DNA from: Acidimicrobiales bacterium | Lineage (GTDB): Bacteria > Actinomycetota > Acidimicrobiia > Acidimicrobiales > CAIXPF01 | Reading direction: 5' to 3' | Assembly (NCBI GenBank): GCA_046153015.1 | Contig: JBJXGF010000407.1 | Span: 1 to 58,000 of the forward strand | Length of the DNA: 58,000 nt | Shown: positions 5,231 through 43,827 of the stretch, in pieces | How positions within the stretch are numbered: position 1 is the first letter of the stretch | Layout: each line of letters starts with the position of its first letter | Position numbers and translations under genes: made by a program | The notes under the pieces: generated by a model | What the model saw: the letters and a program-made list of their open reading frames with translations, nothing else | Database searches by the model: none | Told to the model about the DNA's origin: nothing

Positions 5231-5983
5231 ATGGCGACTCCGATGCGCTTCGGGGAGCAGTTCGACGTAGACAGCGTCTACAAGGTGATCCAGCTGGTGG
5301 GGAGCCATCCCGACTCGTGGGAGGCGGCCGCGGAGGCGGCGCTGCAGGAGGCGATGAAGACGATCCGCGATCTGCGGGTCGCGCAGGTGATCGAGATGGA
5401 CACCCATCTCCTCGACGGGGTCATCCACCAGTACCGGGTACGTCTGAAGGTGTCGTTCCGGGTGGACCGGGGCCGCCGGGCGCCCACCGGTGAGCGGGTG
5501 GAGGTGCGCCGCTACCTGGTGGTGGCCAACCAGACCACCGGCGGGGCCGAGCTCAACGCCGCGATCGAGAAGCGGGTGGCCGCCGGGCCGAGCGAGTTCC
5601 ACGTGCTGGTCCCGGCCACCTGGTCGAAGGACTACGCCGCCGCCCGCCGGCTCACCAGCCTCGGCGTGGACCCCGCCTCGGGTTTCGCGGTGGCCGACCT
5701 CAGCGTGCTGAACGCGGCCGATGAGGAGGGCGAGCGGATCGCCCGCGAGCGGCTCGACCGCCAGCTCGCCCAGCTGCGCAGCGTCGGCGCCCATCCCACC
5801 GGCGAGGTCGGCCCCGCCGACCCGATCGGCGCGATCGCCGCCGTGCTCAGCCGCGGCTCGTTCGACGAGATCATCCTCTCCACCCTCCACGCCTCGGCGT
5901 CGCGCTGGCTGCGCATGGACCTGCCGAGCCGCGTCGAACGCCGCTTCGGCCTGCCGGTCACCGTGATCGAAAGCGAACGCTGA
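5231..5983 (+). CDS. dodecin domain fused to a C-terminal USP-like alpha/beta domain
   Basis: The N-terminal ~75 aa are paralogous to the divergent dodecin (VYKVIQLVGSHPDSWEAAAEAALQEAMKTIRDLRVAQV...VRLKVSFRV). The C-terminal ~160 aa (YLVVANQTTGGAEL...EFHVLVPA...FDEIILST) resemble actinobacterial USP-like domains of unknown function. Confidence 0.8.
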   Translation: MATPMRFGEQFDVDSVYKVIQLVGSHPDSWEAAAEAALQEAMKTIRDLRVAQVIEMDTHLLDGVIHQYRVRLKVSFRVDRGRRAPTGERVEVRRYLVVANQTTGGAELNAAIEKRVAAGPSEFHVLVPATWSKDYAAARRLTSLGVDPASGFAVADLSVLNAADEEGERIARERLDRQLAQLRSVGAHPTGEVGPADPIGAIAAVLSRGSFDEIILSTLHASASRWLRMDLPSRVERRFGLPVTVIESER

Positions 5984-6214: not shown

Positions 6215-6244
6215 GTGAGCGCGCCGGCGGCGCCGCCCGTGGGG

Positions 6245-37669: not shown

Positions 37670-38416
37670 ATGGCCCCAATGATCGGCGAGTTGACGCAAG
37701 CGCCTGGTCAGCTCCTCGTGAAAGGCGTCGAGCGGGTGATCGAGCTGCGCTACCCGGCGGCTCAGGACTTCGTCGAGCGCGCCCGGGCGCGACAGCCGCA
37801 AGCGACCCCCGCACAGATCGGCGCACTCGCTATCGCGCGGGCTGAGAAGGAGCTGATGACGCTGGGGGCCGCGTCCGGCGGCTCTGCCGCGGTGCCCGGC
37901 GCCGGCACCGCGGTGGCCATAGGGGCCATCGGCGCCGACCTCATTGCGAGCGGGGCCCGTCTCACCGAGATGACCATGCGAATCGCCGTGGCCTATGAGC
38001 ACCCGATGGAGGATCTCGAGGCGCGGCGAGCGGTCGTGCTCACGATCATGCTCGGCGGCGTGGGCGGTCAGAAGGTCGTGAACAAGGCCGCCGCAGAGCT
38101 GGGAAAGGGCCTGTCGAGCCAGGCGCTCAAGCACATCAGCGGCCAACAGCTCAGGGTGATCAATCGGTTCCTCGGGCGCACGATCATCACCAAATACGGC
38201 ACCAAGCGGGGGGTCATCTCGCTCGGTCGAGCGCTCCCCTTCGGCGTCGGCGCGGTGATCGGCGCGGGAGGCAACTACCTCGTCGCCCGCAGCACCGGCC
38301 GCTATGCCATCCGCTTCTTCGACGAGGGCGACTGGAGCGCCGACCCGGGCGAGGACGTGATCGACGTCGACGAGGCCGGCCTCGACGACGAGTCGGAAAG
38401 CCGCGACGCCGACTGA
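37670..38416 (+). CDS. hypothetical protein, possibly EcsC-like
   Basis: 248 aa with Gly/Ala-rich hydrophobic segments and an acidic tail (DVDEAGLDDESESRDAD). The EcsC assignment is from memory and is weak. Confidence 0.6.
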   Translation: MAPMIGELTQAPGQLLVKGVERVIELRYPAAQDFVERARARQPQATPAQIGALAIARAEKELMTLGAASGGSAAVPGAGTAVAIGAIGADLIASGARLTEMTMRIAVAYEHPMEDLEARRAVVLTIMLGGVGGQKVVNKAAAELGKGLSSQALKHISGQQLRVINRFLGRTIITKYGTKRGVISLGRALPFGVGAVIGAGGNYLVARSTGRYAIRFFDEGDWSADPGEDVIDVDEAGLDDESESRDAD

Positions 38417-38524
38417 AGCAAGACGGGCCTGCCACGCGCCAGGGTCGATGGTCCGGTCCCTCCTCAACATCGGGTACCTACCCTCCGCGCCGCCCTTGGC
38501 GCTGCGCTGCTCGTACCCTCGCGG

Positions 38525-40633
38525 GTGGCCGAGGCGAACATCTCGGGCTTGTTCGCGTCCAACGACGCGGCGGACATCCTCGTCGACACGTTCCGCTCCG
38601 ACGAGGCGTTGTTCGCCTATGTAGTGACCGACATCGTGGGCGGCGAGGTCTGCATCGTCGACGCAACGGTGGAGGACCCGGCTGCGGCGAGCTGCGACGA
38701 TCCGGCCTGGGGATCACCCAATCGGGTCTTCGGCATCGGCACGCTGCACACGCTGCTGGAGGGGCCGGGATTGGCGCCGGGCACCTGGAAGCTCCTGGGG
38801 ACGATGCCCAACGGCGCGCCCGGCGGGCGGGTGCTCAGCGCCCCCTTCACGGTCGTGCCGTGCGGCGCGACGTGCAACTACGAGTTGGGCGCAGCCGCGG
38901 CGGAGGCGTTCAAGGCGCCGGCTCGGCAGTTGGCCGCCGGCACCAAGGCGGCCTGCATCGGCTTCGGGGTCGCCGACTGGGTGGGCGGCGGGGTCGACGC
39001 CAGCGAGTACTGGGGTATGGCCAAGACGCTGCGGGGGACGGTCGACGACACCGCTGGCGCGGTGTCGGCCAGCGCCAGCCGGTCCCCGGGCGGTGGGACC
39101 GTGCTCGCCGTCGGCGCCGCGGCCTTCGGCCCGGTGCTGCTCGGTCTGCCGATGTCCTACAACGAGGCCGTCATCGACATCGGCAAGCAGCTTCTGTGCG
39201 CGCAGAACGAGATGTTCACCGACATCGTCAACGACCCGCCCCGGGCGGACTACACGGTGTTGCACGAACCTCGACCCCGGCCGATCGCGGAGACCTACAA
39301 CGCCCTCGGCAACGAATTCGTCGATTCCCTCGAGGCCACCCTGGCCGTCGACCGCGGGATGTTGATCACCTACGAGCGCTACCTGGGCGCCGTGTTGGCC
39401 GGCAATGCCGAATGGACGCGTCGCCAGGCGCAGCACCTGCACACCTTGAGCCTCGCCGCCGGCGACGCGATGCGGGCCTCGGCCGCCAAGCTGGCCGAGG
39501 TGTCCGCCGCGCTCGGGGCCAACCCCGAACCGCTCGCCCCCATGCTGACCGAGGCCGAGCTCGTGGAGCTCAAGGCCCTCGCCAACCGGGTCGCGACGGC
39601 TGGGCTGCTGCCCGAGGAGCTGGCATCGTTCGCCGCCGCCGGCGCCACAGAGGCCGAACGCGACCGGGTCGTGGCCGAGATCGTGGCCCTCGGGTCGACG
39701 CCGGACGCGGACTTCCCCGTCGGCCGCTCCCTCGTCGACATCGTCGACGCGCTGGCGGCAGAGCTGCGCTCGGCGTCCTACGAGTTCGAGCGTTTCGGCC
39801 GGTTCGCGTTCGCCGGCCCCGGCGCCGCCGCCGCGGTCAACCGGGCGCCGGTGGCCGGCCCCGACAACGTCACGACGTCGGAAGACGCCGACGTGGCGGT
39901 GTCCGTCCTCGACAACGACGTCGACCCCGACGGCGACGCCCTCACCCTGCTGGCCGTTTCACCCCCCACGCGCGGCAGCGCCGCCCTGCTCGGCAATCGG
40001 GTGATCTACACCCCGGCGCCCGACTCCTCCGGCGCCGATTCGTTCACCTACACGATCTCGGATGGGAACGGGCAGACGGCGACCGCGGCGGTGCTCGTCA
40101 CGGTCACGCCGCTGCCCGATACACCCGTTGCCCGCGACGACGACGTCCTCGGCAGCGTGGGTGTGGCCTCGCTGGTCGACGTGCTGGCCAACGACGCCGA
40201 CGCCGATGGGGAGCCGCTCGTCGTCACCGTGCTGACCCCGCCGGCCAGCGGGCTGCTGGAACCGGTCAGCAACGGCGTCTTCCGCTTCACCCCGGCCCGT
40301 CGGGGGGCAGCGAGCTTCACCTACCTGGTGACCGACCCGACCGGCCGCACCGCCACTGCGACCGTGCGCATCGCGTCGGGCAACACGGCGCCGGTGGCCC
40401 TCGACGACGTCGCGGCGACCGATGAGGACATCGCGGTCACGGTGGACGTCCTGGCCAACGACGCCGACGCCGACGGCGACCCGTTGACGATCAGCATCAC
40501 GTCCGCGAGCCGCGGGCTCCCCGTCGTCAACGGTGACCGCATCCTCTATGTCCCGGCGCCCGACTACGCCGGTGCCGACAGCTTCACCTATCAGGTCTCC
40601 GACGGTGTGGGACGTCGGCCCCGGCCACGGTGA
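38525..40633 (+). CDS. giant repeat protein, N-terminal fragment: unknown ~435-aa region plus three cadherin-like repeats (frameshifted gene)
   Basis: The repeats carry (V/L)xNDxDxDGDxL and FTYxxSDG motifs. The third repeat is cut mid-domain at ...FTYQVSDGVG and continues in the next ORF's frame. Confidence 0.75.
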   Translation: MAEANISGLFASNDAADILVDTFRSDEALFAYVVTDIVGGEVCIVDATVEDPAAASCDDPAWGSPNRVFGIGTLHTLLEGPGLAPGTWKLLGTMPNGAPGGRVLSAPFTVVPCGATCNYELGAAAAEAFKAPARQLAAGTKAACIGFGVADWVGGGVDASEYWGMAKTLRGTVDDTAGAVSASASRSPGGGTVLAVGAAAFGPVLLGLPMSYNEAVIDIGKQLLCAQNEMFTDIVNDPPRADYTVLHEPRPRPIAETYNALGNEFVDSLEATLAVDRGMLITYERYLGAVLAGNAEWTRRQAQHLHTLSLAAGDAMRASAAKLAEVSAALGANPEPLAPMLTEAELVELKALANRVATAGLLPEELASFAAAGATEAERDRVVAEIVALGSTPDADFPVGRSLVDIVDALAAELRSASYEFERFGRFAFAGPGAAAAVNRAPVAGPDNVTTSEDADVAVSVLDNDVDPDGDALTLLAVSPPTRGSAALLGNRVIYTPAPDSSGADSFTYTISDGNGQTATAAVLVTVTPLPDTPVARDDDVLGSVGVASLVDVLANDADADGEPLVVTVLTPPASGLLEPVSNGVFRFTPARRGAASFTYLVTDPTGRTATATVRIASGNTAPVALDDVAATDEDIAVTVDVLANDADADGDPLTISITSASRGLPVVNGDRILYVPAPDYAGADSFTYQVSDGVGRRPRPR

Positions 40634-43600
40634 GCCTCACCGTCCGAGCGGTGAACGACGCGCCGCAGATCCTCGCGCTCAACCGGACGGCCATCATCGG
40701 GCGGCCGATCCCGCTGGCGGTTTCCGTGACCGACCCCGACACCGCGGCCGAGCGGCTCACGGTCGGCGCCACAGCGGCCCATGGCTCGGTGTCGGGCGCG
40801 TACCCTGAGCTCACCTACACGCCGGGGCCGGGCTTTCGCGGTGACGACACGGTGACGGTGACCGCGTCCGACGGGCTCGTCACCTCCAGCGCCGAGGTCG
40901 TCGTCCGCGTGGTGACCGTGATCGACAACGGCGTCGTCCAGCTCGGCATCAACCCCACCGGTGAGCTCAACGTCGACAGCGGTGATCTCCTGCCCTCCCT
41001 CAACGGGACGAGCGCTGTCGGGCTGCGCTACCTGCCGACCACCGCCGAGGCCACCGCGCCCGGCTGCCTGTGCGAAGGCTGGGGCGTGGCCGACGCCACG
41101 AGCGGCGTGACCGGCTACGCCAATCAGTCAAAAGGCACGGCCAACATCACGCCGGTGTCGATGACGGTGACCTCCTCGACGGCGACTGTCGTGGTCCGCG
41201 TCGGCGACACGTTCCTCGTGACCCACCGCTACCGGCCGTCGACCGCCACCCCGAACCTCTACGAGGACGAGGTGACCATCGAGAACATCTCCGCCGCCCC
41301 GACCGAGGTCCGCTACCGGCGGGTGATGGACTGGGACGTCGAACCCACCGCCTTCACTGAGTACGTGACGATCGTCAAGGGCGACTCGCCGGAGCTGGTC
41401 TTCACCTCCGACGACGGCTTCGCCACCTCCGACCCGCTCGGCGGTCCGAGCTCGATCCGCTTCACCGGCGCCGCCGCCGACGACGGCCCCATCGACCACG
41501 GCGCGCTGTTCGATTTCGCCTTCGGCGCCCTGGCCCCGGGCGCGTCCCGGACCTTCGTGACGTTCTACGGCGCGGCAGGCAACGAGGCGGCCGCCCTGGC
41601 CGCGCTGCGGGCGGTGGGGGCGGAGGCCTACTCGCTCGGCCAGCCGTCCACGCCCGGCGGGGCCGACCTGGGCGAGCCGAACACGTTCGTGTTCGCCTTC
41701 GGGCGGGTCGGCGGCACGCCGGTGTTCAACCGGCCGCCGGTGGCCAACGCCGGCGCCGCCACCACGCCAGCCGGTGCGCCGACGCCGGTGCTGCTGAGCG
41801 GCAGCGACCCCGACGGCGACCCGCTCACGTTCGCGGTGGCGTCCGGCCCGGCGCACGGCGTCCTGTCGGGCACGGCGCCGGCGCTCGTCTACACCCCCGA
41901 CGCGGGCTTCTCGGGTGAGGACACGTTCACCTTCACCGCCTTCGACGGCGAGGTGCTGTCCGCGCCGGCCACCGTGCGTCTCACGGTCCGCCCCGCCGCC
42001 CCGCCGAACCGGCCGCCCGTCCTGGGCGACGATGCGTACACCGTGGCGGAGGACGCCGCCCTGATGGTTCCCGCCCCGGGCGTGTTAACCAACGACTCCG
42101 ACCCCGACGGCGATGCGCTCGCGATCACCGTCTGGGGCGCGGCCGCCCACGGCACGGTCGTCGGCGGCCCCGGCGGGTCGGTCACCTACAACCCGGCGGC
42201 GGACTTCCACGGCGCCGATGCCTTCACCTACACGGCGTCGGACGGTCATGGCCACACGGCCACCGCGACCGTGCGGGTCACGGTGACCCCGGTCAACGAC
42301 CCGCCGCAGGTCACGGCCAGCATCCCGGCCTCGGGGGTCGAGGGCACGCCCATCGCGGTGTCGGCGGCCGGCGCCGACGCGGACGCAGACGCGCTCACGT
42401 TCACCTGGTCCGTCTCCGGCGGCCCGTGCACGCTCACCCCGGTCACGGGGACGGCCGCGAGCCTGGTGTGCACCGACGACGCCGCCGCCGCGCTGGTGAC
42501 CGTCACGGCCTCCGACGGCCACGCGGCCACCCCGCTGACCCGGGAGGTGACCACCCGGAACGCGCCGCCGTCGGTCGCCGTGCGGCCGATCGCCGCTGGG
42601 GGGACCGCCCCGGCGCCGGTGACGGTGGAGGCGGTGGTCTCCGACCCCGCGCGGCCGACGTGCTGCGCTGTTCCATCGACTTCGGCGACGGCACGCCGGC
42701 CCACTCGGTGCTCCCGGCCGGGGGCGTCTGCTCCGCAACGGCGACGGTGCTGGCCGAGGGCCACCCTGACGGTCACCGACGACGACGGCGGTGTGGCCAG
42801 CGGGTTCGGCGACTTCCTCCTGCGTCAGGCCAACCGGCCGCCGACGGTGACGTTGAGCGGGCCGGCCAGCGGCGCCGAAGGCGCACCGCTGGCGGTGAGC
42901 GCGACCGTGGCCGACCTCGACCGTGATTTCGTGGCCGTCTTGTGGACGATGACCGCGAGCGGTCTCGACGCCGGCGGCGTCTGCACGTTGTCGGCCACGA
43001 ACGGTCTCTCGACGAGCGTCCGTTGCACCGACGACGCGACGGTCACGCTGACGGCGTTGGCGGGCGACGGGCAGTCGTCGACGAGCGCCACCACCACGAT
43101 CCTGGTGGGCGACGCGGTCCCGTCGATCGCGTTGGCGCCCGTGGCGATCTCCGGGCCGGCGCCGGCCGAGGTCACCGTCACGGCCGGCGTGAGCGACCCC
43201 GGCGCGAATGACGTGCTGTTCTGCCGGTTCGCCTTCAGCGACGGCGCCGTCCGGATCGCAGACGCGGCCTCCGGCGTCTGCCGGGCGACCGTTCCCGGCC
43301 TCGGCGCCGGCAGCTTCCGGGTCACGGTCACCGTGACCGACGACGACCACGAGTCAGCGACGGCGTCGAGCGAGTTCACCGTGGCGGCCCCGCCGCCGCC
43401 GTCGTCGTGCACGACCGTCAGCGGCGAGGCGTCCCTGGCGGGCAAGCCCTGGCGCCTCGAGGTGGAGAAGGGCCGTGGCGGCGCCCGTCGTGTGGAGGTG
43501 TACGGCCCCAGGCGCCAGCACTGGCACGGCCGGGTCGCCTCGACCACCGGGGTGGACACGACCGCCACCCTGACCACCGCGCCGTCGAAAGAGGGGACGG

Positions 43601-43827
43601 TCCTGACCATCGTCATCGAGGACCGTCACAAGGCCGACCGCTTCTCGGTCAAGGTCACGCGGCGGGGCCGGGTCCTGGCGTCGACCGACGGCTTGCAGAA
43701 GACGTCCCGATCGACCCTGCGGGTCGATCTGTCAGCGTGCCATGCCTGCCCCTGGGAGCCCCACGAGGGCCACGAGGGGCACGAGGGCCACGACGGGCAC
43801 GAGCACTGGGCGCGGCCGCACGACTGA
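40630..43827 (+). CDS. giant repeat protein, C-terminal fragment: cadherin-like repeats, unknown ~270-aa central domain, two PKD-like double modules, His-rich tail
   Basis: The frame is open upstream to about 40609, giving GTSAPATVSLTVRAVNDAPQ, which completes the repeat broken in the previous ORF. It has further NDSDPDGDAL/FTYTASDG repeats, two ~180-aa duplicated modules, and ends HEGHEGHEGHDGHEH. Confidence 0.75.
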   Translation: MSLTVRAVNDAPQILALNRTAIIGRPIPLAVSVTDPDTAAERLTVGATAAHGSVSGAYPELTYTPGPGFRGDDTVTVTASDGLVTSSAEVVVRVVTVIDNGVVQLGINPTGELNVDSGDLLPSLNGTSAVGLRYLPTTAEATAPGCLCEGWGVADATSGVTGYANQSKGTANITPVSMTVTSSTATVVVRVGDTFLVTHRYRPSTATPNLYEDEVTIENISAAPTEVRYRRVMDWDVEPTAFTEYVTIVKGDSPELVFTSDDGFATSDPLGGPSSIRFTGAAADDGPIDHGALFDFAFGALAPGASRTFVTFYGAAGNEAAALAALRAVGAEAYSLGQPSTPGGADLGEPNTFVFAFGRVGGTPVFNRPPVANAGAATTPAGAPTPVLLSGSDPDGDPLTFAVASGPAHGVLSGTAPALVYTPDAGFSGEDTFTFTAFDGEVLSAPATVRLTVRPAAPPNRPPVLGDDAYTVAEDAALMVPAPGVLTNDSDPDGDALAITVWGAAAHGTVVGGPGGSVTYNPAADFHGADAFTYTASDGHGHTATATVRVTVTPVNDPPQVTASIPASGVEGTPIAVSAAGADADADALTFTWSVSGGPCTLTPVTGTAASLVCTDDAAAALVTVTASDGHAATPLTREVTTRNAPPSVAVRPIAAGGTAPAPVTVEAVVSDPARPTCCAVPSTSATARRPTRCSRPGASAPQRRRCWPRATLTVTDDDGGVASGFGDFLLRQANRPPTVTLSGPASGAEGAPLAVSATVADLDRDFVAVLWTMTASGLDAGGVCTLSATNGLSTSVRCTDDATVTLTALAGDGQSSTSATTTILVGDAVPSIALAPVAISGPAPAEVTVTAGVSDPGANDVLFCRFAFSDGAVRIADAASGVCRATVPGLGAGSFRVTVTVTDDDHESATASSEFTVAAPPPPSSCTTVSGEASLAGKPWRLEVEKGRGGARRVEVYGPRRQHWHGRVASTTGVDTTATLTTAPSKEGTVLTIVIEDRHKADRFSVKVTRRGRVLASTDGLQKTSRSTLRVDLSACHACPWEPHEGHEGHEGHDGHEHWARPHD
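43762..43806 (+). repeat. 5 x 9-bp coding tandem repeat (His-Glu/Asp-Gly tail)
   Basis: The units cacgagggc, cacgagggg, cacgagggc, cacgacggg and cacgagcac encode HEG HEG HEG HDG HEH. Confidence 0.9.

Follow-up and report, generated by a model that had tools for sequence, protein, structure and literature searches.

Results

Organization of the giant gene

The window, that is, the whole stretch of 58,000 nucleotides analysed here, carries a giant gene for a repeat surface protein (Table 1). A Viterbi frame tracker, whose codon model was trained on the long ORFs of this genome, found a single continuous coding signal at about 38415-43824. The signal runs in frame 2 (38415-38477), frame 1 (to 40608), frame 0 (to 42645), frame 2 (42646-42759) and frame 0 again (to 43824). 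The reconstructed frame contains no stop codon and has no large deletion. The GC content of the gene is 0.731, the same as the genome median.

The product of the annotated ORF 40630-43827 contains Big_9/cadherin-like repeats and a central domain of 270 aa, together with two A+B super-modules, a C-terminal domain and a His-rich tail. In each super-module, module A is Ig-like and module B is PKD-like. The tail, located at 43735-43827 (HEGHEGHEGHDGHEH), lies 3' of a CHAC motif. The central domain at 40900-41760 has the motifs VIDNGVVQ...CEGWGVAD...GEPNTFVF and matched no Pfam family when the whole ORF was scanned. In this ORF the Pfam PKD domain was found in module B2 only (aa 840-916), with 25.4 bits for the whole ORF, which passes PF00801.

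Table 1. Positions of the giant gene, its modules and its lesions, and of other lesioned genes in the same MAG
Feature	Position	Strand	Remarks
Giant repeat surface-protein gene	38448-43827	+	~1,790 codons if read through; now split over several frames
Probable -1 shift in GGG run	38472-38477	+	Viterbi switch and translations; ATG-led MVRSLLNIG parted from PTLRAALGAALLVPSRVAEA
Upstream ORF, 702 aa	38525-40633	+	N-terminal part of the giant gene; terminates within a Big_9 repeat
Uncompensated -1 frameshift in G run	40607-40612	+	gtgGGGacg one G short; splits the gene into two ORFs
Annotated ORF, 1065 aa	40630-43827	+	Part of the gene that holds modules 1 and 2
Module A1 (PPQVTAS... Ig-like), intact	42301-42558	+	AlphaFold2 pLDDT 85-96
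Module B1, PKD-like, bearing both lesions	42559-42837	+	Paralogue, homologue HMM, Pfam, AlphaFold2
Site 1, one G missing	42645-42652	+	gaccccG^Cgcgg in module 1, gaccccGGCgcg in module 2
Scrambled 37 codons, ancestral frame -1	42651-42761	+	AADVLRCSIDFGDGTPAHSVLPAGGVCSATATVLAEG in the -1 frame (frame 2); ARPTCCAVPSTSATARRPTRCSRPGASAPQRRRCWPR in the ORF frame
Site 2, return to the ORF frame	42759-42766	+	Net +1 (mod 3); frame 0 regained between 42761 and 42763
Super-module 2 (A2 + B2), intact paralogue used as yardstick	42838-43405	+	Pfam, HMM, pLDDT 90-98
mrpA/nuoL-like gene	contig C136, 5344-8127	+	Hidden compensated pair, frames 1 to 2 to 1 at 5719-5811, 31 codons, ORF open
Thiolase (fadA-like) and enoyl-CoA hydratase/dehydrogenase (fadB-like)	contig C283, 28420-31251	reverse	Several frames

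Frame change in the middle of module B1

The sequence-only reading had described two duplicated C-terminal modules, whose ORF (40630-43827) is real and whose quoted peptides are exact as written. It had proposed that in the first of them two compensating frameshifts scramble ~37 codons while the ORF stays open. This proposal is borne out by the paralogue, the homologue HMM, Pfam, GC3, the codon model and AlphaFold2, which all agree. The two ends of B1 are in the ORF frame (frame 0), and the middle, 42651-42761, is in the -1 frame.

When the module 1 readings were locally aligned with module 2 using BLOSUM62, the peptide of the neighbouring frame, which had been claimed to fit module 2, gave the best score of the three frames. 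Frame 2 scored 60 and frame 1 scored 21. The score of 43 for frame 0 was due only to TLTVTDDD, which is outside the scrambled segment. A further comparison used an HMM of 128 module-B domains taken from distant homologues (P0002-P0082), which share the alternating A/B architecture and have ~26-40% identity; the window sequence was left out. This HMM matched module 1 in three consecutive parts: positions 1-32 in frame 0, positions 32-64 in frame 2 (18.0 bits, E-value 1.5e-6) and positions 68-82 in frame 0. Module 2 was matched in a single frame with 75 bits. Thus, the annotated frame of 42651-42761 is not what the homologues conserve.

Pfam gave no PKD match to the annotated reading of B1. When module 1 was read through and X was placed at each junction, it scored 23.1 bits for PKD_4 (cut-off 27) and 18.6 bits for PKD (cut-off 23.5), and module 2 alone scored 24.0 and 20.5 bits, respectively; both modules taken alone are just under the Pfam cut-offs. 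The GC contents of the three codon phases are 0.62/0.94/0.72 at 42652-42760, compared with 0.68/0.60/0.94 in the whole ORF. In the codon-model Viterbi path, positions 42646-42759 are off-frame, and over these 38 codons the model gains 39 nats.

The structure of the annotated reading of 42298-43413 was predicted by AlphaFold2 with a 23-sequence alignment. Modules A1, A2 and B2 had pLDDT values of 85-98, and B1 as annotated had values of 42-72. At residues 122-146 of the annotated reading (nt 42661-42735) the pLDDT was below 50, whereas the equivalent part of B2 had 90-96. As encoded, B1 is devoid of the core strands, and the prediction gives no beta-sandwich fold for it. The two outcomes that the sequence-only reading had named as refuting its proposal, a conserved annotated frame and a well-folded domain, were not obtained, the first being judged on distant homologues.

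High GC content had been suggested to keep the wrong frame open and to make ORF callers miss the scrambled stretch, and both suggestions agree with the data. In this genome, 48% of +1-shifted 37-codon windows contain no stop codon, so an open ORF across the shifted stretch needs no explanation. P0001, the database product of the gene caller, includes the nonsense residues.

The two indel sites

At site 1, module 2 reads GACCCCGGCGCG where module 1 reads GACCCCG-CGCG in the DNA alignment, and a G was lost at 42649/50. The sequence-only reading had placed one missing base near the C-run at 42645-42648. One base is indeed lost, but it is the G after the run; module 2 also has CCCC.

For site 2, the same reading had a return near 42759-42766 by one extra base or two missing bases. 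Its position and the net +1 hold, but the size of the change is probably a loss of 11 bases. Positions 65-67 of the homologue HMM are absent at this site. In module 2 and in the homologues P0008, P0012 and P0018, the conserved Cys and DDD are spaced by 19 residues, and module 1 attains this spacing only if 3 codons and 2 nt (11 nt) are missing. The DNA alignment of module 1 with module 2 has gaps of 7 and 4 columns (total -11) before 42762. Because the Cys-DDD spacing matches these alignment gaps, an 11-nt deletion is our best guess, and judged from the aligned letters site 2 most likely lost 11 bases. A less likely alternative is that the GGG or CCC run gained one base. The two sites are ~113 nt apart, at most 117 nt. 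Neither indel is divisible by three and their sum is, when their sizes are taken from the paralogue rather than from an ancestor.

Further lesions of the giant gene

The Viterbi path switches frame at 40608/9. This shift at 40609 cuts a Big_9 repeat, and a stop codon follows 8 codons on. When the repeat is read to the upstream stop, it covers profile positions 1-79 of 89 with 96.7 bits, and when it is read across 40609, it is complete (1-89 of 89) with 102.9 bits. Since Big_9 is completed only across 40609, the ORFs 38525-40633 and 40630-43827 are one gene. The TGA stop of the upstream ORF overlaps the GTG start of the downstream ORF at 40630-40633 (GTGA), and this arrangement could permit translation of the downstream ORF.

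At 38448-38530, MVRSLLNIG is encoded in one frame, and PTLRAALGAALLVPSRVAEA followed by NISG is encoded in the ORF frame. The frame of the ORF 38525-40633 is open from 38417 and has no start codon before 38525. The translations suggest that the lesion at ~38475 probably splits a signal-peptide-like sequence; it would be the fourth lesion of the giant gene. In all, the frame of this larger, broken gene is disrupted at three or four points, the B1 pair among them.

Searches for homologues and orthologues

Searching the DNA of the module region against 41 related genomes returned short chance matches only. Among 5.8 billion protein sequences, no relative with more than 36% identity was found except P0001, the gene's own product. 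When the central domain was compared with all 15 genomes of the family, the Big_9 repeats alone matched. In metagenomes from soil, sediment and other sources, the central domain was found at at least 79 loci (L023-L101) with 45-64% identity. None of these loci has A/B modules downstream, and they were rejected as orthologues of the lesioned part. Neither an orthologue nor a second assembly of the giant gene was present in the collections searched. Since no orthologue was found, the ancestral state was deduced from the paralogue and from homologues of ~33% identity only. The genome yielded no donor that could explain the 114-nt stretch by gene conversion.

Frame integrity of the rest of the genome

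The 4.46-Mb MAG contains 2454 coding-like ORFs of at least 200 codons, including 37 of at least 1000 codons. We looked for rpoB to serve as an integrity control, but the MAG does not contain it. In a first codon scan with 3 states, 111 "compensated" candidates were obtained, nearly all of which were noise arising in non-coding stretches or spurious ORFs. A 7-state frame tracker adds non-coding and reverse-strand states, which are required to suppress this noise. It detected 666 frame switches on the same strand, of which 617 have the stop codon of the upstream frame at the junction, as is normal for gene boundaries, and at most ~50 other candidate frame switches are left in 4.46 Mb.

Two further loci have several lesions. 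In the mrpA/nuoL-like gene, the hidden pair scrambles FWELTS...LIGF, which is the most conserved motif. The same gene has a nonsense codon, AAG>TAG at 6224-6226, in the Lys of the DLK motif; clearly, the pairing did not rescue its function. The fadA/fadB-like pair has at least 5 shifts, which mostly remove one base from a C or G run of 3-6. A tblastn search with the thiolase paralogue on contig C259 confirmed that the thiolase is split. The clustering of lesions in a few genes, with the remaining MAG clean, is the pattern to be expected from neutral decay of dead genes.

Discussion

Probable decay of the giant gene

The reading that we favor, at a probability of about 0.7, is that the gene is decaying and that its lesions are real mutations of recent date. 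In the proposed course of events, the gene for a giant secreted repeat protein would have gained several small deletions. In B1, one of these would be a 1-nt deletion of G at 42649/50 and another would lie ~113 nt downstream, the two together being a multiple of three. The ribosome would then read 37 B1 codons out of frame and regain the original frame. At 73% GC a shifted frame would be stop-free about half the time and the ORF would stay open, and gene callers would output an Arg/Pro/Cys-rich nonsense stretch in place of the B1 core strands. The event appears to be recent because the segment is still at the GC3 of its old frame (0.94). Because of the uncompensated shift at 40609 and the probable shift at ~38475, the giant gene as a whole has most likely lost its function. 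Its reading frames suggest that it is most likely a pseudogene. On this reading, the case is one of ordinary gene decay missed by gene callers and involves no new mechanism.

Real mutations or assembly artefact

In this MAG, 33 pairs of contig ends have an exact 127-nt overlap. These overlaps, rather than assembly metadata, indicate a short-read de Bruijn assembly at k=127, and they make long-read homopolymer errors unlikely. Since every 127-mer is derived from reads and the sites are at most 117 nt apart, both B1 indels are linked on the same molecules. Thus, the B1 pair is probably a real haplotype.

It is unlikely, then, that the true module is intact and that the indels at 42649/50, 42759-66, 40609 and ~38475 came from sequencing, error correction or consensus. 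Some observations do fit such an origin. The MAG is fragmented (414 contigs, 82% completeness), the lesions of the three multi-lesion loci are mostly -1 in G/C runs, as systematic sequencing or consensus error would give, and they are locally clustered, as errors in low-coverage or repeat-rich regions can be. A survey of compensatory frameshifting mutation pairs (pCFM) in vertebrates and insects began with 624 candidates and retained just 6 after stringent filtering (PMC8935012), and this shrinkage is a warning about artefacts. However, such indels are rare in short-read de Bruijn assembly, and here both sites are inside one k-mer. Elsewhere in the genome, long ORFs are intact, and the giant gene does not deviate from the median GC content. 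Furthermore, neither the apparent 11-nt loss at site 2 nor the nonsense substitution in the mrpA-like gene is an error of the homopolymer type. Overall, it is likely that the lesions are real mutations.

Chance, selection and other origins of the pair

Four lesions placed at random in 5.4 kb would have a smallest gap of 113 nt or less with a probability of 0.23. The chance that the second lesion restores the frame may be put at about one quarter to one third, and the joint chance with closeness would be ~0.06-0.08. This joint chance and the tight pair in the mrpA-like gene leave room for earlier selection or for a single mutational event.

It is rather improbable that the pair was selected and that the protein is in use, in which case the first indel would have shortened the protein, the second would have been fixed by restoring module 2 and the C-terminal domain, and the dead PKD module would be a linker. 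In the same explanation, the 40609 shift would be bypassed via the downstream GTG start, which overlaps the upstream stop at 40630-40633. The B1 sites are unusually close at the above chance of 0.23, the second B1 shift is opposite in direction to the prevailing -1 events, with chance compensation at ~0.06-0.08, and another tight compensated pair exists in the mrpA-like gene; these points are consistent with selection. However, the downstream ORF would be without a signal peptide and the upstream part stops within Big_9. The mrpA-like pair hits the most conserved motif beside a nonsense codon, and there was no rescue there. The frameshifted reading of B1 has no evidence of conservation, and its GC3 shows no adaptation to the new frame.

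It is quite doubtful that the B1 and mrpA-like pairs, instead of having arisen by separate accidents, are the footprint of a process in this lineage which makes or keeps tight compensating indels. In one version of such a process, a single error-prone repair patch may yield both indels at once. In another version, there may be rapid selection for frame restoration, by which a folded PKD domain becomes a disordered linker rich in Cys, Arg and Pro while the protein stays in use.

It is hardly credible that frame 2 is used deliberately, whether by a gene nested (overprinted) in the ORF or through programmed ribosomal frameshifting (-1, then back). Frame 2 is open over 42426-42926 (166 codons, GTG start), but its coding signal is limited to 42646-42759, which is exactly the missing middle (profile 32-64) of a domain whose ends are in frame 0. 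Site 1 (GAC CCC GCG CGG) lacks a slippery heptamer of the form X XXY YYZ. At site 2 there is no +1 shift signal and, in the translated frame, neither an in-frame stop nor a rare codon, and we know of no mechanism for a programmed double shift.

Comparison with known systems

Under the preferred reading of recent decay, the B1 pair is a fresh instance of an already known type of event, within a multi-lesion bacterial pseudogene. As in pCFM, two close indels, neither of which is a multiple of three, jointly restore the frame, and the intervening peptide is unrelated to the ancestral one. The survey required inheritance by several species and kept 1-2-nt indels only (PMC8935012), whereas the B1 pair is from a single bacterial MAG with no orthologue and its second indel is probably 11 nt. 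Unlike pCFM, the host gene of the B1 pair has more, uncompensated lesions, and the pair may thus reflect neutral decay rather than protein evolution.

Like the PKD domain (PF00801 / PF18911), module 1 when read through carries an xDFGDG motif, a conserved Cys and a TVTDDDGG end. The encoded B1, in contrast, is without core strands and predicted to be unfolded.

Multi-lesion pseudogenes are found in bacteria such as Mycobacterium leprae and host-restricted Salmonella. The giant gene resembles them in that small indels, mostly 1-base losses in short homopolymers, have accumulated in one gene, while the neighbours are intact and the coding signature is kept. It differs from them in that its reconstructed frame is free of stop codons and large deletions, and in that its decay is very recent and partly hidden from ORF callers by high GC content.

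Implications

If selection or a process of the lineage did form or keep the pair, it would exemplify, in a bacterium, how a compensated frameshift gives rise to protein novelty. The recent decay of a large adhesin-like gene is documented here in an uncultured actinobacterium-like organism. The main value of this case concerns annotation quality: GC-rich genomes feed databases with proteins that contain nonsense inserts, and pseudogenes in very GC-rich genomes are counted as intact. A codon-phase check is a cheap detector of hidden frameshifted stretches. Across this MAG, it singled out the B1 site and one other.
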